This document shows positions 3,525 to 18,700 of a stretch of DNA of 42,304 nucleotides, in pieces (the stretch's first letter is position 1; every line of letters begins with the position of its first letter). The position numbers and the translations under genes are program-made. Origin of the DNA: a virus (taxonomy: Duplodnaviria > Heunggongvirae > Uroviricota > Caudoviricetes); IMG/VR virus record IMGVR_UViG_2734482773_000007. The stretch is one strand, 5' to 3'. The notes beneath the pieces are model-generated. The model was not told where the DNA came from. It did no database searches and saw only the letters and a list, made by a program, of their open reading frames with translations.

Positions 3525-4442
3525 TTATAATAGTGCTGTTACTATTGCATCTTTAAAAATATTTTCTTCTTCATTTATTAAAGGTGATGACAGATGAATA
3601 ATTACTTCTTTTCCTGTCAATACTATTTGCTCGACTTGAAATCCTGCGTTGTGTAGTCTTTGGCGTAACTTTTCTAGTGCTGATTTTGATATACTAAATC
3701 CTTCACTCCTTATAGTATAACTGGCAACTCCATTTTTAATAATATCTACAGAGTTGTCAATTTCCTGCTGCGAGTAATTTTTCGGTGAGTCGAAAAATCT
3801 GGATTTTGTCGTTGCTGTTGCCCTAAGAGATATCAATAATGATTTGATATCTTTAATCTCAGATGCCAGATACTCAGTTTCTGATACTTCTTTCTGGTCT
3901 AGTTGTGCAACTTTGAAAGTGCCAAAATGTTTGAGGAATGTTGTGTATTCAGGATCAGTTACTGACTTTAAATATGTTTCTTTTATCTTGCTCGCAAGTC
4001 TTTCTTTGAATAAATTGATTGATTGGTATCTTAAATCCGAAGGGTACTCTAAATGTTCAATTGATGAAATGTCAAAGCTATAAGGAGTGCGCTCGTCCTT
4101 AATAATTACGGTCGGTTTGTCAAATGCGAGACGCATTCCTAATTCAAACATTACATTAGCGTTTCGAGCACTTATATCGCAAACAACTATGGGGTTTTCA
4201 TAAAGATTTTGAACAATTCGTTTTTGTATTACTGCAACATCATCATCTGAACTTACCAAATTTGCCTTGAATCCGGCATCATTTGATGCTTCACAAATAA
4301 TGTCATGAACATTTCTCCAATGTCCAGTGGGATAACCTTCTATGTCCGCAATTGGCATAATAATGCCGCATATATGAGGTGGCATATTTTTGTTGTCTTT
4401 TACATCATCTTGGTTTATTTCTTTCGTTTGTTGCTTAGCCAT
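3525..4442 (-). CDS. AT-rich accessory protein: N-terminal TIR-like/ThsB-like domain plus ~170-aa C-terminal domain of unknown function
   Basis: 305 aa; codon usage visibly AT-rich versus neighbours; N-terminal pattern IIMPIADIEG ... NPIVVCDISARNANVMFELGMRLAFDKPTVII resembles the beta-strand / N-V-x-x-E-x-G core of TIR-like (ThsB/DUF1863-type) folds; RBS AGGAGT upstream. Confidence 0.5.
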   Translation of the reverse strand: MAKQQTKEINQDDVKDNKNMPPHICGIIMPIADIEGYPTGHWRNVHDIICEASNDAGFKANLVSSDDDVAVIQKRIVQNLYENPIVVCDISARNANVMFELGMRLAFDKPTVIIKDERTPYSFDISSIEHLEYPSDLRYQSINLFKERLASKIKETYLKSVTDPEYTTFLKHFGTFKVAQLDQKEVSETEYLASEIKDIKSLLISLRATATTKSRFFDSPKNYSQQEIDNSVDIIKNGVASYTIRSEGFSISKSALEKLRQRLHNAGFQVEQIVLTGKEVIIHLSSPLINEEENIFKDAIVTALL

Positions 4443-13655: not shown

Positions 13656-15848
13656 ATGTCCGATAGCAAACCATGGGGAGCTACGCCTGATGAGTGGTTT
13701 CATTTCGACCTGGTATTGGGGAGAACTGATCATCTTCTCCCAGTTGTATGTAACCCCAGTGCGACCATATCCCCTGATAGTAAACTGAAAGCGTTGGGTA
13801 AGACGCCGAGTCGCTATAACCGGGACCGCCAGGTCACCGGTATTGCTCAATGGACCGGGCATGTTGTTACTGAGCATGATTTTGCCCGCTGGTCGAATGA
13901 ACCGGATTATGGCATCTGCGTGCGTACAGGCCATGGCTGGCTGGCGCTGGACTGTGATAGCGAAGATGAAGACATTCAGGCAGATATTCGCAAAACGCTT
14001 GTGCAACTTCTGGGTGAGTTGCCGCCGCGACGCTGGCGAGCAAACAGTAATAAGTGTCTGTATCTGCTGGCCGTTGATGGTGATTTCCGTAAGCGTATCC
14101 ATCGCCTGGCGGGGGATATGGGCATTATCGAGTTGCTGGCGAACGGGCAGCAGTTCGTTGCCTGCGGTACGCACAGCAGCGGCGCGCGTATTGAATGGGA
14201 CGGCGGTTTGCCGGATGAACCTCCGGCTATTACTGGTGAGCAGCTTGAAACGCTGTGGCAGCGCCTGGCTGAACAACTCCCTGTGTCGGTAACCACCGAA
14301 GCGGGCAACACGAAGATGCGCGACCGATCAGCATTCACGCCCGGCGCGACGGATGATACAGCTGAATATCTTGATGCCAATGGCTGGACGCTGCTGGATG
14401 GCGCAAATGGTGAACGATATATCCGCTGTCCGTTTGAAGACGGCCACAGTAGCGGGGGCGATCCAACAAGCACAGTTTATTTTCCTGCGGGAACCGCGGG
14501 CTTTGAGCAGGGGCATTTTAAATGCCTGCATGCCAGTTGTGCGCATCGTGATGACGGAGATTTCCTTAATGCCATTGGGATCCGCAACGACGATTTCGAA
14601 GATCTGACCAGCACCGAAGTGGCGGAACCTTTACCGCTGCCTGCTTTCGAGCGTGATAAATGGGGGCGTATCGAGGCAACAATCAGCAACGCAGCCAAAG
14701 CAGTAGTACGCCCTGATTTTGTGGACATCGATATTCGCTTTGACCAGTTCCGCGACGAAATCATGTTTGCCCCTGCAGGATCCGGACAATGGCGGGCATT
14801 CACCGATGCGGATTATGCGCGCCTGCGCATCACGATGGAAAAGCGGGGATTTAAACCTGTTGGTCGTGAACTTATTCGCGATGTGGTGTTACTTGCAGCC
14901 GATGAACAACCATTCGATTCAGCGATCACCTGGCTGAACGGACTGGAGTGGGATGGCGTGTCGCGCATCGAATGTTTCTACCATACGCACTTCGGTACCG
15001 CCGACACGCCTTATACCCGTGCGGTGTCTATGTACATGTGGACCGCGTTGGCGGGGCGAGTACTGGAGCCAGGCATCAAAGCGGATATGGTGCCGATCCT
15101 CGTTGGTCCGCAGGGCTGCGGTAAGTCTTCCGGAGTGGAGGCACTGAGCCCTGATCCTGCGTTTTTTACTGAAATCTCTTTTGCCGAAAAAGACGATGAT
15201 CTCGCTCGAAAAATGCGTGGTCGGCTGGTGGCAGAGATTGGTGAACTGCGCGGACTTAATACCAAAGAGCTGGAGTCAATCAAAGCGTTTGTGACGCGTA
15301 CTCACGAAAACTGGATCCCGAAATACCGGGAGTTCGCCACCCAGTTTCCTCGTCGCCTGGTGTTCGTTGGTACCACCAATGAGGACGAATTCCTTGCGGA
15401 CAAGACTGGTAACCGTCGCTGGCTCCCCGTGGAAGTGTCGAAAGTCGACGTGAAAGCGATAAAAAGAGATCTCCTTTTACTTTGGGCTGAGGCTCGTGAG
15501 GTGTTTCAGCGTCTGGGGGGTATCCAGTTCCGTGAGGCTGAACAACTGGCAGCGAGTGTCCATGAACAGTACACCATCAAGGATGCTTGGCTTGAAACGG
15601 TAGAGAAATGGCTCGACACGCCAGACCTGATGACTAATGAACTTCCGCGAAATTGCGAATTTTTACGCGCAAGTGATGTTTTGCGTGATGCGATTGGGCT
15701 AAATCCTGACCGCATCGGAAAACGCGAAGAAATGCGAATTAGTAATGTTTTGCAAAATTGCGGGTATAAGCGTGCCCAAAGGCGAATTGGGGGGAAAATG
15801 ACTCGAATTTTTGAGGCGGTGTCCCAACCTGTACCAACCTCAAAATAG
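13656..15848 (+). CDS. DNA primase: N-terminal PrimPol-like domain plus C-terminal VirE/P4-type NTPase
   Basis: 730 aa; Walker A GPQGCGKSS and Walker B-like LVAEIGE in the C-terminal half; N-terminal region resembles bifunctional primase-polymerase; followed by iterons. Confidence 0.75.
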   Translation: MSDSKPWGATPDEWFHFDLVLGRTDHLLPVVCNPSATISPDSKLKALGKTPSRYNRDRQVTGIAQWTGHVVTEHDFARWSNEPDYGICVRTGHGWLALDCDSEDEDIQADIRKTLVQLLGELPPRRWRANSNKCLYLLAVDGDFRKRIHRLAGDMGIIELLANGQQFVACGTHSSGARIEWDGGLPDEPPAITGEQLETLWQRLAEQLPVSVTTEAGNTKMRDRSAFTPGATDDTAEYLDANGWTLLDGANGERYIRCPFEDGHSSGGDPTSTVYFPAGTAGFEQGHFKCLHASCAHRDDGDFLNAIGIRNDDFEDLTSTEVAEPLPLPAFERDKWGRIEATISNAAKAVVRPDFVDIDIRFDQFRDEIMFAPAGSGQWRAFTDADYARLRITMEKRGFKPVGRELIRDVVLLAADEQPFDSAITWLNGLEWDGVSRIECFYHTHFGTADTPYTRAVSMYMWTALAGRVLEPGIKADMVPILVGPQGCGKSSGVEALSPDPAFFTEISFAEKDDDLARKMRGRLVAEIGELRGLNTKELESIKAFVTRTHENWIPKYREFATQFPRRLVFVGTTNEDEFLADKTGNRRWLPVEVSKVDVKAIKRDLLLLWAEAREVFQRLGGIQFREAEQLAASVHEQYTIKDAWLETVEKWLDTPDLMTNELPRNCEFLRASDVLRDAIGLNPDRIGKREEMRISNVLQNCGYKRAQRRIGGKMTRIFEAVSQPVPTSK

Positions 15849-16003
15849 AGGTTGGTACATTTTAACTAATTGAATTTAAAGGCCTGTACCAACTGTACCA
15901 TCTGTACCAACCTAATTACTAAGAACCCCATATATATATATAAGTCGCTTGGGGAAAAGGTTTGAAAAGAGCTGGTACAGGTGGGTACAGGTTGGTACAG
16001 GCC
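15828..16003. repeat. iteron cluster with AT-rich spacer (candidate replication origin)
   Basis: At least eight copies of the 9-10 bp motif GGTTGGTACAG / CTGTACCAAC in both orientations (15828-15839, 15850-15859, 15884-15912 three tandem, 15971-16000 three tandem) flanking ATATATATATATA at 15930-15943. Confidence 0.6.
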
Positions 16004-16129
16004 GAACAAGGAATTTTTTGCACATAACAGCGTGTAATAAGCGAATCGGAACTGCGTTATCCACACCCACGGATAAACAAACGTGGTTCTCAGAAAATTT
16101 TTTCGTAGCAAAACGTAGAGGTCAGAGCT

Positions 16130-16552
16130 ATGCGTAATATTCAACAGGTTTTAGAGCGCTGGGGTGGCTGGGCTGCGAGTGAAGGTGGTAGCGTCTACTT
16201 TCCTCCTGTTGCAGCTGGGTTTAAGAATCTGCTACCCGCGACGCAGTCTGGAAGGCTGAAATGCAGTGACAATGACGGTCTTATCATCAACTCCGCTATG
16301 AGCTGCCTGAAGAAAAAAGATCCGTATCTGTGCACGCTCCTTGAGTGGCATTACGTCCAGGCCATGCCCGTGCGGACGATGGGTGAGAAGCTCGGCGTAT
16401 CTCACACCCACGTTCTGAAGAGGCTTCAGGCGGCAGAGGGATTTATTGACGGTTGCTTAGCCATGCTGGATGTGGTGCTCGAAATGGATCAGTCGGTTCA
16501 GTCAAAGCCTCAGGCTATCAGGACTTTGCGTAGGAGCTGCTCGGCGGCATAA
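16130..16552 (+). CDS. Q: late-gene antiterminator Q (phage 82/21 type)
   Basis: 140 aa starting MRNIQQVLERWGGWAA, closely resembling what I recall of the phage 82-type Q protein N-terminus; located just upstream of the lysis cassette. Confidence 0.7.
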   Translation: MRNIQQVLERWGGWAASEGGSVYFPPVAAGFKNLLPATQSGRLKCSDNDGLIINSAMSCLKKKDPYLCTLLEWHYVQAMPVRTMGEKLGVSHTHVLKRLQAAEGFIDGCLAMLDVVLEMDQSVQSKPQAIRTLRRSCSAA

Positions 16553-16553
16553 T
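16526..16553 (+). promoter_or_regulatory. candidate late promoter (PR'-like): TTGCGT-N16-CATAAT overlapping the 3' end of Q
   Basis: Read from sequence; position is analogous to lambda PR', which overlaps the end of Q. Confidence 0.35.
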
Positions 16554-16583
16554 ATCCAGCAATCAATCACGTAAGGGAACCAG

Positions 16584-16925
16584 ATGGCTCTGATCAGCGT
16601 TCGCAACAGATTTGAAAGCTTCATGGAACAGAGGTACCCAGACCTGTCGTTGCAGGTCAAAGGTAATATTGGCGCATCAATGAAGGCTCAACTTGGCATC
16701 AGGATTGAACGAGAATTGTACAGTGAAGATGTTACTTACTGTGATTCAGCAGTTCAGTTGATGTGGACACTCTTTCAGGCAGGTGTTCTGGCCGAACGAA
16801 GAGCTACCAGCGTTACGCTTCCTGCGCTGAAGGCAAAGCCGGATAGCTTCTACGATGCGGGTTATAACGAAGGTATTCAGGACTGTCGTAAACATCTGAC
16901 GGCATCAGGCATCAAGGTAAGATAA
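16584..16925 (+). CDS. hypothetical protein in the Q-to-lysis interval (moron position)
   Basis: 113-aa ORF with AAGGGA RBS; followed by a strong terminator; no motif recognised. Confidence 0.5.
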   Translation: MALISVRNRFESFMEQRYPDLSLQVKGNIGASMKAQLGIRIERELYSEDVTYCDSAVQLMWTLFQAGVLAERRATSVTLPALKAKPDSFYDAGYNEGIQDCRKHLTASGIKVR

Positions 16926-16992
16926 AAAATAGTTGTGGAATTCCAAAAAGCCGATTAGCCTGATATCTGTTGAAAACAGTTCATCACGAAGA

Positions 16993-17016
16993 GGCTCCCG
17001 CAAGGGGGCCTTTTTT
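16993..17016 (+). terminator. rho-independent terminator (GGCUCCC-GCAA-GGGGGCC + U6)
   Basis: 7-bp stem with one G-U pair, GNRA tetraloop, six U; candidate tR'-type terminator that Q would read through. Confidence 0.7.
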
Positions 17017-17246
17017 AATGCTCTATTCTCAGTAAAAGTTAATAAAACAGGGTTTTCGTCGCGAAAAAACGCTATGCAGTTTTTGCCCTTTTTTATGCAC
17101 CTTTTATTCACTCGAATTTCGTCATTCTGGACCACTTAAGTTGATTAAATAGGCCTTTCATCGCAAATCTATTGCGAGCGGTGATCGTATGGTTCCTATA
17201 ACGTACATTATGTTAAATAACTTCCTTTTTTAACAAATTTAACAAG

Positions 17247-17269
17247 GTTCGCTATGGCGAACTTTTTTT
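17247..17269 (+). terminator. second rho-independent terminator (GTTCGC-TATG-GCGAAC + T7)
   Basis: Perfect 6-bp stem, 4-nt loop, seven T; between Q region and holin. Confidence 0.6.
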
Positions 17270-17370
17270 GTATTCAGGGCCCACCGAAGGACGGCTCATA
17301 ACCCAATCCTACGGGCGTATACGCAGGGCCCGCCTTTCAACAACACCCCGTAATGGCGGAGGTGGGAAGT

Positions 17371-17712
17371 ATGAAAATGCACAATGCTCCTCATTCCTGG
17401 CCTGACTTACTGGAACTCTTACAAAGTTGGTGGCGTGGAGATACGCCGTTGGGCGCAGTGGTTATGTCAATTGTTATGGCTGGTTTGCGCATTGCCTATT
17501 TTGACGGTGGCGGCGGCTGGAAACGAAAAACGCTTGAGATTTTGCTCTGTGGTGCTCTGACGCTGACTTTTGCATCCGCTCTTGAGTATGTCGGATGGCC
17601 TAAATCGCTTTCTGTTGCCATTGGTGGTGGTGTTGGGCTGATCGGTGTCGATGCTATTCGTGGGGCTGCAATGCGAGTAATCGGTAACAAGTTTGGTGGC
17701 TCTAAGGAGTAA
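17371..17712 (+). CDS. holin with Met-Lys-Met dual-start motif
   Basis: Hydrophobic segments (VVMSIVMAGLRIAYF; ILLCGALTLTFASAL; AIGGGVGLIGV); starts MKM like lambda S107/S105; GGAGGTGGG RBS; directly upstream of the endolysin. Confidence 0.7.
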   Translation: MKMHNAPHSWPDLLELLQSWWRGDTPLGAVVMSIVMAGLRIAYFDGGGGWKRKTLEILLCGALTLTFASALEYVGWPKSLSVAIGGGVGLIGVDAIRGAAMRVIGNKFGGSKE

Positions 17713-17715
17713 TTC

Positions 17716-18192
17716 ATGCAGACACTAAATTCCCAACGTAAAGCTTTCCTGGATATGGTGGCATGGTCAGAAGGAACGGATAACGGGCGACAACCGACAC
17801 GTAATCACGGTTATGACGTTATCGTCGGAGGTGAGTTGTTCACTGATTACTCCGATCACCCTCGCAAACTTGTCACGCTAAACCCGAAGCTTAAATCAAC
17901 AGCCGCAGGCCGGTATCAGCTTCTTTCACGCTGGTGGGATGCCTACCGCAAGCAGCTTGGCCTGAAAGATTTTTCGCCAGAAAGTCAGGACGCTGTGGCG
18001 CTGCAGCAGATTAAAGAGCGTGGCGCTTTACCGATGATTGACCGTGGCGATATTCGTCAGGCAATCGACCGTTGCAGCAATATCTGGGCGTCGTTACCTG
18101 GTGCAGGTTACGGTCAGTATGAACATAAAATCGGTGACCTGATTTCCAGGTTTAAAGATGCTGGTGGGGTGGTAAATGAAGCTGACTTATAA
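17716..18192 (+). CDS. R: endolysin, lambda R-type lytic transglycosylase
   Basis: 158 aa; long stretches (NQRKAFLDM.AWSEGTDNGRQ.TRNHGYDVIVGGELFTDYSDHPRKLVTLNPKLKST.AGRYQLLSRWWDAYRKQLGLKDFSP) match my recollection of lambda R nearly exactly. Confidence 0.85.
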   Translation: MQTLNSQRKAFLDMVAWSEGTDNGRQPTRNHGYDVIVGGELFTDYSDHPRKLVTLNPKLKSTAAGRYQLLSRWWDAYRKQLGLKDFSPESQDAVALQQIKERGALPMIDRGDIRQAIDRCSNIWASLPGAGYGQYEHKIGDLISRFKDAGGVVNEADL

Positions 18193-18700
18193 GATTGTCA
18201 TCGCGGCATTTTTCTTCTCTGTCTTTGGGGCGCTCGTCTGGTCTGCAAACCATTACCACAGCAAGTATCAGGCAGAAAAGTTGCGGGCTGATAAAGCGGA
18301 AGGTGAAGCTGAATATCAAGGGAAAGTGATAGCTAATCAGGCATTAAACTTCAATCGTTTTAACCAGATAGCAGAAAACGCAAGCCGATTAAATTCTCTG
18401 GTCGACATCGGTCACGAGAAGACAGTCATCAAATACCGTGAGGTTCTGCTCCGTGAAAAGAACTGTGATTTCCCTGTTCCTGTTGATATTGCTGTCGGGT
18501 TGCTCAACTACGCGAACCGTTTACGCGCCAGCGCATTGCACGCCGATTCCGGGGACATTGACTCAGCCGGTGATCGTGCCACTACCACCAGAACGTTGAC
18601 ATATTGCCAGGCTGTTCTGTGGATTAACCCACTGTTGGCAGCCATCGAGAAGGCGAATAACCAGTTGGCTGGTGTCCGACAAATAGAACAGTCCCGGTAA
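18176..18700 (+). CDS. Rz: Rz-like i-spanin
   Basis: 174 aa, N-terminal TM helix (IVIAAFFFSVFGALVW), coiled-coil periplasmic part; overlaps the end of R as in lambda. Confidence 0.7.
   Translation: MKLTYKIVIAAFFFSVFGALVWSANHYHSKYQAEKLRADKAEGEAEYQGKVIANQALNFNRFNQIAENASRLNSLVDIGHEKTVIKYREVLLREKNCDFPVPVDIAVGLLNYANRLRASALHADSGDIDSAGDRATTTRTLTYCQAVLWINPLLAAIEKANNQLAGVRQIEQSR
18453..18599 (+). CDS. Rz1: Rz1-like o-spanin lipoprotein embedded in Rz (+1 frame)
   Basis: Translated by hand: (V/M)KRTVISLFLLILLSGCSTTRTVYAPAHCTPIPGTLTQPVIVPLPPER; lipobox LSGC, Pro-rich tail; only GTG starts available (18453 chosen, 18465 or 18438 possible). Too short for the ORF track. Confidence 0.55.
   Translation: MKRTVISLFLLILLSGCSTTRTVYAPAHCTPIPGTLTQPVIVPLPPER

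Follow-up and report, generated by a model that had tools for sequence, protein, structure and literature searches.

In phage 21, the -35 element of the late promoter PR' lies 7 nt past the stop codon of the antiterminator gene Q, two 8-bp Q-binding subsites (QBEu/QBEd) are found between the -35 and -10 elements, and the terminator ends at +50 (Shi 2019, PMC6606751; Yin 2019, bioRxiv 10.1101/651190). The phage 21 Q protein is included in Pfam family PF06530, which is named the Q21 family (PMC9388147), and the Q21 and lambda Q families have been reported to lack similarity in sequence or structure (PMC9388147). We compared this organization, as given by the OL657228 annotation and the two studies above, with the Q-to-lysis region of a window of 42,304 nt (the whole stretch of viral DNA analysed here; IMG/VR record IMGVR_UViG_2734482773_000007). 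As in phage 21, the window has a Q gene of family PF06530 with lysis genes downstream of it (Table 1). When compared directly, the window Q gives a weak match to the Q21 structure 6p18_P in the PDB (E=0.17), and the Q of another locus of the same PF06530 family (L032) matches it with E=3.8e-5. On account of the latter match and the naming in PMC9388147, the label 'Q82 family' for PF06530 was dropped.

A first-pass annotation, made from the letters alone, had described a 113-aa open reading frame (ORF) with a ribosome-binding site and a strong GNRA-loop terminator 3' of it, all of which are present, and had placed the ORF in a constitutively transcribed interval between PR' and the terminator tR'. 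This placement is contradicted by a cassette linked to Q that lies 3' of the ORF and that abuts Q where no gene is inserted; the comparative evidence thus indicates that the ORF lies in the Q-to-PR' gap and outside the PR'-to-tR' interval. Our preferred reading, which we regard as reasonably probable, is that the ORF, a bona fide gene of Pfam family PF26207, is accessory and non-essential and occupies an insertion slot between Q and Q's own late promoter, with the late cassette at 16933-17016. On this reading the ORF is an ordinary accessory gene, and the value of the analysis is modest. It corrects a plausible regulatory reading by placing the late promoter of prophages of this type after the ORF, and for a subgroup of the Q21 family it supplies a defined sequence, open to testing, that holds the late promoter and the putative repeats bound by Q. 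This subgroup is found in prophages of E. coli pathotypes (O55:H7, O103:H2, ETEC H10407) and in the Stx2e phage phiP27.

Table 1. Features of the Q-to-lysis region, with positions in the 42,304-nt window
Feature	Position	Strand	Basis
Antiterminator gene Q, 140 aa	16130-16552	+	PF06530 E=6.6e-42; phrog_79
P1, upstream promoter candidate of the first-pass annotation, TTGCGT (16526-31)-N16-CATAAT (16548-53)	16526-16553	+	overlaps Q stop codon
Ribosome-binding site AAGGG (Shine-Dalgarno-like)	16573-16577	+	sequence reading; 6 nt 5' of ATG
ORF, 113 aa, ATG start	16584-16925	+	open-reading-frame call
Segment deleted in four isolated phages	16588-16873	+	alignment to phage vB_EcoM-611R5, script-verified
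Putative late-promoter and Q-utilisation cassette (candidate PR')	16933-16969	+	conservation, Q linkage, phage 21 layout
Assignment 2: -35 TTGTGG (16933-38), -10 TAGCCT (16956-61)	16933-16961	+	hexamer reading
Assignment 1: -35 TTCCAA (16941-46), -10 TATCTG (16964-69) after TGn	16941-16969	+	hexamer reading
Direct repeats AGCCGATT (16949-56) and AGCCTGAT (16957-64)	16949-16964	+	between assignment-1 hexamers; 8-bp period
Small hairpin CTGTT-GAAA-ACAG, start of putative leader	16967-16979	+	per-sequence folds
Intrinsic terminator (candidate tR'), GCAA loop and T6	16988-17016	+	fold -21.1 kcal/mol, z=-4.5 vs shuffles
Second, weaker terminator-like hairpin, between candidate tR' and holin	17244-17272	+	scan; -10.4 kcal/mol, z=-2.5
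Lysis cassette, first late genes	17353-18700	+	PF05106; phrog_126, phrog_90, phrog_214
Holin	17353-17712	+	part of lysis cassette
Endolysin	17716-18192	+	part of lysis cassette
Rz-like spanin	18176-18700	+	part of lysis cassette

A Q-linked cassette downstream of the ORF

The segment at 16933-17016 begins 380 nt after Q and ends 337 nt before the holin gene. In a close relative (L021), the cassette is identical over 78 alignment columns (100%), running from the 3' end of the ORF through 16983, while the synonymous sites of the ORF are 62% diverged. Loci bearing the cassette were counted as those with the 17-mer TTGYGGAATTCCAAAAA and a PF06530 Q gene upstream, yielding 45 loci (44 viral contigs and the phiP27 record), across which the cassette keeps both its sequence and its link to Q. 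In 17 of the 45, it directly adjoins the 3' end of Q or overlaps it. The gap from the Q stop codon to the cassette is -26 or -99 nt in 11 loci, +11 in four, +17 or +18 in two, and +214 in a single locus with a partial Q match; it is 347-380 in 23 loci, every one of which has this ORF, and 1333 in the four remaining loci, which are of the phiP27 type and have a GIY-YIG nuclease gene. Loci with an insertion have exactly one gene between Q and the cassette, a pattern that marks the junction between Q and the candidate PR' as an insertion slot. In Klebsiella phage ST13-OXA48phi12.2, the core of the cassette likewise lies between Q and the holin gene. A comparative paper on Stx pR' does not cover the cassette.

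Like the ORF, phiP27 L22 (a GIY-YIG/T5orf172 protein) and mEp390 gp47 are each a lone extra gene between a PF06530 Q and the cassette core, and their sequences are unrelated to that of the ORF. Unlike the ORF, mEp390 gp47 is on the opposite strand and has its own annotated terminators. The first-pass annotation had likened the position of the ORF to that of the toxin genes in Stx phages. A cargo slot at the boundary between Q and the lysis genes is borne out by phiP27 and mEp390; the analogy with Stx phages is imprecise, since stx genes are downstream of tR' and need Q (PMC7547250 and established knowledge of Stx phages).

From its conservation, its linkage to Q and its layout, we infer that the cassette is PR' and the Q-utilisation site (qut). 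As in phage 21, a -35 element is followed by 2 bp, two 8-bp direct repeats and a -10 element overlapping the last base of the repeats, and a short leader would end in an intrinsic terminator (50 nt in phage 21, ~41-49 nt predicted in the window). The distance from Q is 380 nt rather than the 7 nt of phage 21 because the ORF is inserted between the two. The repeats themselves differ, the putative subsites of the window being AGCCGATT/AGCCTGAT and those of phage 21 ATTGAGCA/AATGAGCA. The register of the repeats is kept in relatives, as ATCCGAAT/ATCCTGTT in phiP27 and AGCCATTT/AGCCTGTT in another cassette-bearing locus (L044). As the window Q is no more than a distant relative of phage 21 Q, the likeness in layout is suggestive and is not taken as proof.

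Two readings of the promoter hexamers are possible (Table 1). Both have 17-bp spacing and a weak match to the sigma-70 consensus (3/6 and 3/6), and one has an extended -10 TGn; a simple promoter scan of the window called neither pair. Alignment with phage 21, aimed at fixing the start site and pause element, did not separate the two assignments. Phage 21 has a sigma-dependent pause element, whereas no clear TAnnnT element is seen at +2 to +7 of the window under either assignment. We infer a start of transcription at ~16968-16976, a range of ~8 nt that reflects the lack of a clear -10-like pause element at this expected position. A conserved hexamer of TAAGAG type (TATCTG in the window) is similar to the pause element of phage 21, TAAGCT, but follows the other -10-like hexamer at a distance of only 8 bp.

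The putative leader contains no ORF. In folds of individual sequences, the stem of the small hairpin at its start, CTGTT/AACAG in the window, is replaced by GTGGT/GCCAC in phiP27 and by GGTGG/CCACT in a further relative (L060). The candidate tR' starts ~20 nt past the cassette and has a 12-bp stem with a G+C-rich core of 7 bp; a simple terminator scan missed it because extension of the stem consumed the T tract. A compensatory change from C-G to T-A is found in its stem in L021, and 10 of 14 cassette variants have an equivalent hairpin followed by a T-run, ending 78-90 nt from the cassette start. A search of 15800-17450 with Rfam at a permissive threshold gave only sub-threshold matches, and these lay on the terminator. 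Similar to lambda 6S RNA and StxS, which are short PR'-to-tR' RNAs, the candidate PR' of the window should give a constitutive, terminated leader; StxS comes from a much longer interval of 258 nt (PMC7547250).

Expression of the ORF

The ORF begins 31 nt past the Q stop codon with no hairpin in between, and we find no convincing promoter of its own; it is therefore probably co-transcribed with Q. Under our preferred reading, the ORF would share the delayed-early transcript of Q, with translation starting from its own AAGGG site, around which the block ATCAATCAYGTAAGGGAACCAGATGG is kept in the alignment to L021. The protein would then appear at the early-to-late switch of lytic growth and not in lysogens. 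Polymerase starting at the candidate PR' could then reach the lysis genes only with Q, which would carry it past tR' and past the second hairpin. Two findings count against this scheme, namely that a relaxed promoter scan of 15850-16130 gave no convincing promoter for Q, and that a terminator-like inverted repeat lies 5' of Q at 15830-15859.

The first-pass annotation had instead drawn a 'PR'-like promoter' at the end of Q (P1). In its moron form, this model has P1 constitutively active in the lysogen, where a transcript of ~450 nt running to the GCAA-loop terminator would express a lysogenic-conversion or exclusion gene. Its elements are in part real: the P1 hexamers are present and kept in L021, a strong terminator does lie 3' of the gene, the boundary between Q and the lysis genes is a known cargo slot in phiP27 and mEp390, and PR'-to-tR' transcripts can be functional, as with StxS (PMC7547250). 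As a promoter, P1 is no better than expected by chance. It agrees with the consensus at 8 of 12 positions and falls under the threshold of the promoter scan, and 114 sites in the 42.3-kb window are equally good or better. Its conservation in L021, the only relative to keep it, is confounded by coding constraint because P1 lies inside the Q coding sequence, and the spacer there differs at 6 of 16 positions. No comparable promoter precedes the homologue in three more distant loci (L024, L025, L029), and three other loci with a homologue (L034, L035, L002) leave no space for one. Homologues that follow a lambda-type or DUF1133-type Q lie directly 3' of a promoter-plus-terminator unit, again with no space for a further promoter.

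The element that is both conserved and linked to Q is, moreover, 3' of the ORF. We judge P1, on these comparisons, to be a fortuitous match, and the moron model to be unlikely. With the late promoter after the ORF, the gene should not be treated as a constitutive lysogenic-conversion candidate. In one locus (L027), a homologue apparently does have a lambda-type PR' on its 5' side and the first intact terminator on its 3' side, so the arrangement proposed by the first-pass annotation exists in the family, though not in the window. The -10 hexamer of P1, CATAAT, is a good one, and P1 could still fire.

The encoded protein and family PF26207

The ORF had been said to encode a protein with no recognisable motifs. 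By profile matching, the product is a member of PF26207 (Phage_phiTE_015): matches to PF26207.1 are precomputed for two protein clusters (P0001 and P0002) that are 99% identical to it, as well as for 60+ profile matches that include distant homologues. The same protein is already named in RefSeq, where the RefSeq/PGAP name for the gene at the same E. coli locus is 'phiTE_015 family protein'. Among PHROGs its matches, phrog_343 included, are to families without an assigned function, apart from phrog_15831, whose 'head closure' label we took to be an annotation artefact. Local scans of the protein with Pfam-A and NCBIfam gave no match. Homology and structure searches, which the first-pass annotation had proposed, led to the family and to no fold or function match: neither the sequence and fold searches nor the literature on phiTE_015 and PF26207 pointed to a function, and PADLOC defence-system models gave no family at E<=1. 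Scans of genome-collection contigs with peptide patterns produced pattern matches among which no relative was confirmed.

The product (12.7 kDa, pI 8.6) is predicted to be a soluble, mostly helical cytoplasmic protein. Its maximum Kyte-Doolittle value over 19 residues is 0.94, with no transmembrane segment and, as the first-pass annotation had noted, no signal peptide; an AlphaFold2 model (pLDDT 72.7) has helices at residues 4-17, 55-74 and 89-107, in which the conserved residues are concentrated. In an alignment of 12 sequences, down to 29% identity, F10, E11, W61, L79 and P80 are invariant and Y52, Q58, G67, D91, G93, N95 and E96 are at least 90% conserved, and the C-terminal conserved motif reads V-x-L-P-x5-P-D-x-F-Y-D-A-G-Y-N-E-G-I-x-D-C. 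PF26207 members share with the window protein a length of ~85-115 aa, a central helix with aromatic residues and Trp, and a C-terminal L-P...Y-D-x-G-Y-N-E-x-I-x-D-C motif. The enterobacterial subfamily differs from the distant members in its longer N-terminus and in its position, which is tied to Q genes, while the distant members are located 3' of primase genes, in groups of small early genes, and have no Q gene in their vicinity.

At 18 of the 19 loci of this subfamily, an antiterminator gene directly precedes the homologue. Three families (PF06530, PF03589, PF06576) are represented among these antiterminators, and the homologue is found immediately 5' or immediately 3' of the late promoter. 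Such a position would be expected of a protein tied to the late switch, one that modulates Q antitermination, RNA polymerase/NusA or the timing of lysis. We nevertheless consider this improbable: the distant members have no such neighbour, the gene is often deleted or frameshifted in phages that are still viable, and searches revealed no structural or sequence likeness to any transcription factor. The presence of unrelated genes in the same slot in phiP27 and mEp390 is better accounted for by a recombination hot spot. In a narrower form, the enterobacterial branch alone would be a dedicated partner of the late switch, with a target common to all Q types (RNA polymerase, NusA or lysis timing). 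This would explain its retention beside Q across three antiterminator families and on either side of the late promoter, and we hold it to be quite unlikely. Within our preferred reading of an accessory gene, we suggest, tentatively, a factor that is aimed at the host or at defence systems and that would help, without being needed, at about the time late expression begins. The persistence of one PF26207 branch beside three antiterminator families offers a lead for assigning a function to the family.

Selection on the ORF and its dispensability

Judged by its substitution pattern, the ORF is a genuine gene, since dN/dS is 0.062 relative to L021, in which the homologue is 86% identical (pN 0.076, pS 0.616). 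For more distant, unsaturated pairs, dN/dS ranges from 0.15 to 0.4. Homologues are found in six genera (Escherichia, Rahnella, Yersinia, Providencia, Proteus and Xenorhabdus) at 36-50% identity and with the invariant motifs. Genome comparison also shows the gene to be dispensable, as it is absent from 76 of 138 E. coli prophages of the same type and from four isolated phages. In the latter, a frameshifting deletion of 286 bp has left a remnant of 9 codons, and one-nucleotide frameshift alleles of the ORF are found as well.

That the ORF is a chance frame or a decaying remnant in the spacer between Q and the promoter is highly improbable: the lack of a known function, the loss of the gene from more than half of the related E. 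coli prophages and the frameshift alleles would suit such a reading, but the strong purifying selection, with dN/dS of 0.06-0.2 over the informative pairs, on which we rejected the view that it is not a gene, and the conservation over six genera run counter to it, as does the 3' remnant of the deletion lineage, all of whose differences from the window are synonymous when read in the original frame.

A PF26207 gene downstream of the Q antiterminator

The window is a temperate E. coli myovirus prophage, and the region around its Q gene is 99-100% identical to prophages integrated beside yfhL in many E. coli genomes. The ORF, its ribosome-binding site and the terminator beyond it are present as the first-pass annotation had described. 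Comparison of the ORF with an 86%-identical homologue in a close relative (locus L021) gave a non-synonymous difference of 0.076 and a synonymous difference of 0.616 (dN/dS 0.06), with values of 0.15-0.4 in other informative pairs. Homologues at 36-50% identity were found in a Proteus/Vibrio phage and in Rahnella, Yersinia, Providencia, Proteus and Xenorhabdus prophages; residues invariant across them lie in an N-terminal helix (F10 and E11), in a central V-Q-L-M-W helix and in the C-terminal motif L-P...P-D-x-F-Y-D-A-G-Y-N-E-G-I-x-D-C. This conservation at the protein level shows that the ORF is a real gene, and its family, of unknown function, is already catalogued: the earlier statement that the protein has no recognisable motifs gives way to a precomputed match to Pfam PF26207 (Phage_phiTE_015) on clusters 99% identical to it, and to the RefSeq name 'phiTE_015 family protein' for the gene at this locus. 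Local copies of Pfam-A and NCBIfam returned zero matches for the protein. Members of the close subfamily are few, with 16 clusters at 50% identity in a set of 1.84 billion representatives; a broader profile recovered 84 proteins, none of them named and nearly all assigned to PF26207. The product is 12.7 kDa with a pI of 8.6, and no hydrophobic segment was found in it.

Features around the Q gene and the ORF (window coordinates)
Feature	Position	Strand	Details
VapE-type primase gene	ends 15848	+	
Iteron-like array	15819-16003		
Q-type antiterminator gene	16130-16552	+	PF06530, E=6.6e-42
Promoter proposed in first-pass annotation	16526-16553		TTGCGT-N16-CATAAT, overlaps Q stop codon; 8/12 consensus positions
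Ribosome-binding site	6 nt 5' of ORF ATG		AAGGG
ORF	16584-16925	+	
Mechanical ORF	16905-17135	-	76 aa
Mechanical ORF	16933-17139	+	68 aa
Conserved block, putative PR' + qut	16933-16969		
Candidate -35	16941-46		TTCCAA
8-bp repeats, putative Q-binding subsites	16949-56; 16957-64		AGCCGATT; AGCCTGAT
Candidate -10	16964-69		TATCTG, preceded by TGn
Possible alternative -35	16933-38		TTGTGG
Possible alternative -10	16956-61		TAGCCT
Small hairpin	16967-16979		
Strong intrinsic terminator, putative tR'	16988-17016		GCAA loop, T6 tract; -21.1 kcal/mol, z=-4.5
Non-coding stretch	17017-17352		
Promoter-like site	17236..17207	-	TTGTTA-N18-CATAAT
Second terminator-like hairpin	17244-17265		
Direct repeat CAGGGCCCRCC	17275; 17324		
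Holin, endolysin, Rz genes	from 17353	+	

A conserved cassette between the ORF and the lysis genes

Reading the flanks of diverse ORF homologues revealed a conserved block directly 3' of the ORF in every homologue locus with a PF06530-type Q. The block follows the pattern TTGYGG-AATTCCAAAAA-N6-TAnnnT-N2-TAAGAG-like, with a hairpin and T-run 25-60 nt further on. Here it is identical to that of L021 at all 78 columns compared (100%), as against 62% synonymous divergence in the adjacent ORF, and the terminator stems of the two differ by a compensatory C-G to T-A change.

A 17-mer scan of viral contigs yielded 67 stretches, 44 of them with a PF06530-like Q upstream; together with the phiP27 phage record these made 45 Q-linked loci. 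The block starts before the Q stop in 11 of the 45 (by 26 nt, or 99 nt in one), 11 nt after it in four, 17-18 nt after it in two and 214 nt past a partial Q hit in one. In a further 23 it starts 347-380 nt past the stop, with the ORF filling the gap every time, and in the four loci of phiP27 type the distance is 1333 nt and the gap holds a GIY-YIG/T5orf172 gene. In Klebsiella phage ST13-OXA48phi12.2 the cassette core follows Q and precedes the holin gene; mEp390 has a reverse-oriented gene, unrelated to that of phiP27, interposed between Q and the core. The linkage and the distribution of gaps indicate that the cassette travels with Q and the late genes and that, as judged from these loci, the junction between Q and cassette accepts insertion of single genes. 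The phiP27 slot gene (1262-2491 of its locus) encodes 409 aa with MUG113 and T5orf172 (GIY-YIG-like) domains; that of mEp390 (529-1410) encodes 272 aa on the reverse strand and has annotated bidirectional terminators.

The Q proteins of phage 21 and the window fall into one Pfam family (PMC9388147). Against the Q21 structure, a family member from locus L032 scores E=3.8e-5 and the window Q gives only a weak match (E=0.17). The late control region of phage 21 has been defined experimentally: in its annotated genome, the PR' -35 sits 7 nt past the Q stop, 8-bp Q-binding subsites ATTGAGCA and AATGAGCA separate it from the -10, TAAGCTG at +2 is a pause element and the terminator ends at +50 (PMC6606751; bioRxiv 10.1101/651190). 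The window cassette can take the same layout of -35, 2 bp, two 8-bp repeats and -10, which would place the start near 16976 and give a leader of about 41 nt. Relatives vary the bases but preserve the 8-bp register, phiP27 for instance having ATCCGAAT/ATCCTGTT. The alternative hexamers, also possible, would place the start near 16968; because no clear pause element was identified in the cassette under either assignment, the start is uncertain by about 8 nt. From its conservation, linkage and layout, we infer that the block comprises PR' and qut.

The small hairpin at the very start of the putative late leader may give the RNA a structured 5' end; in per-sequence folds its stem differs by subgroup (CTGTT/AACAG in the window, GTGGT/GCCAC in phiP27, GGTGG/CCACT in locus L060). 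In many relatives, phiP27 and six other loci (L024, L025, L035, L119, L120, L121) among them, a conserved gene pair lies between the late cassette and the lysis genes, one gene encoding a 65-69-aa protein (annotated in phiP27 as a TrmB-family regulator) and the other a roughly 350-aa N6/N4 DNA methyltransferase; the window is without this pair.

Expression, dispensability and antiterminator partners

The first-pass annotation had placed a PR'-like promoter at the end of Q and the ORF in a constitutively transcribed PR'-to-tR' interval. As that promoter falls below the scan threshold and 114 window sites score at least as well, the match is no better than chance, and the Q-linked cassette sits downstream of the ORF instead. 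While the observation was largely correct, its regulatory interpretation is unsupported: the ORF appears to lie in a cargo slot between Q and PR'. No hairpin was found in the 31-nt gap between Q and the ORF, and a promoter-like site upstream of the ORF is absent from three more distant loci with the same arrangement (L024, L025, L029; gaps 15-29 nt). On the simplest reading, the ORF would be co-transcribed with Q on a delayed-early message. No convincing promoter was found 5' of Q in 15850-16130; positions 15830-15859 hold an inverted repeat resembling a terminator. A weak functional proposal is that the product probably acts in the cytoplasm as an accessory factor, produced at about the time of the switch from early to late expression.

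The gene is dispensable. Among 138 complete E. coli genomes with the region, 62 have the ORF segment at full length and 76 do not, and single-nucleotide frameshift alleles also occur. In the four isolated phages nearest to the window, those of the vB_EcoM-...R series, a deletion of 286 bp (16588-16873) causes a frameshift, so that nine codons remain; the end of Q, the ribosome-binding site, the terminator and the cassette are all retained. What is left of the gene there departs from the window sequence only at positions that were synonymous in the original frame, so the deletion occurred in an allele that was functional and had diverged.

In 18 of 19 subfamily loci the gene lies directly downstream of an antiterminator gene, and three antiterminator families are represented; more distant PF26207 members come after primase genes, in the company of small early genes. 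The recurrent adjacency to antiterminator genes of three families is the sole lead on function, and a recombination hot spot would explain it equally well. Where a homologue follows a lambda-type (PF03589) or DUF1133-type (PF06576) Q, the order is Q, lambda-like promoter, terminator, ORF and second terminator, which leaves no space for a further promoter; by this gene order the homologue would be the first Q-dependent late gene. Locus L027 has a degraded-looking first terminator, and its homologue may truly lie inside a PR'-to-terminator interval. Another, L028, has a lambda-type Q and PR', yet a partial PF06530-type cassette (GTGTAAGAGT...CACACAGCTTA...terminator) follows the homologue (about 4307-4420), which suggests that ORF and downstream cassette moved as a single unit between phages of different Q types.

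Neighbouring non-coding DNA

The two mechanical ORFs run across the late cassette and its terminator and are in all likelihood spurious calls in regulatory DNA; phage vB_EcoM-611R5 has a 38-aa hypothetical protein annotated over part of the minus-strand ORF. The 336 nt separating tR' from the holin gene are conserved with L021 as far as about 17240, despite the different genes downstream. The iteron-like array between the primase gene and Q, with five direct CTGTACCA(AC) copies and three to four inverted ones flanking (TA)6 at 15931-15942, is probably a replication origin or initiator-binding region; one inverted pair is the repeat scored as terminator-like by the scan, and L021 has a seemingly different repeat unit at this position.
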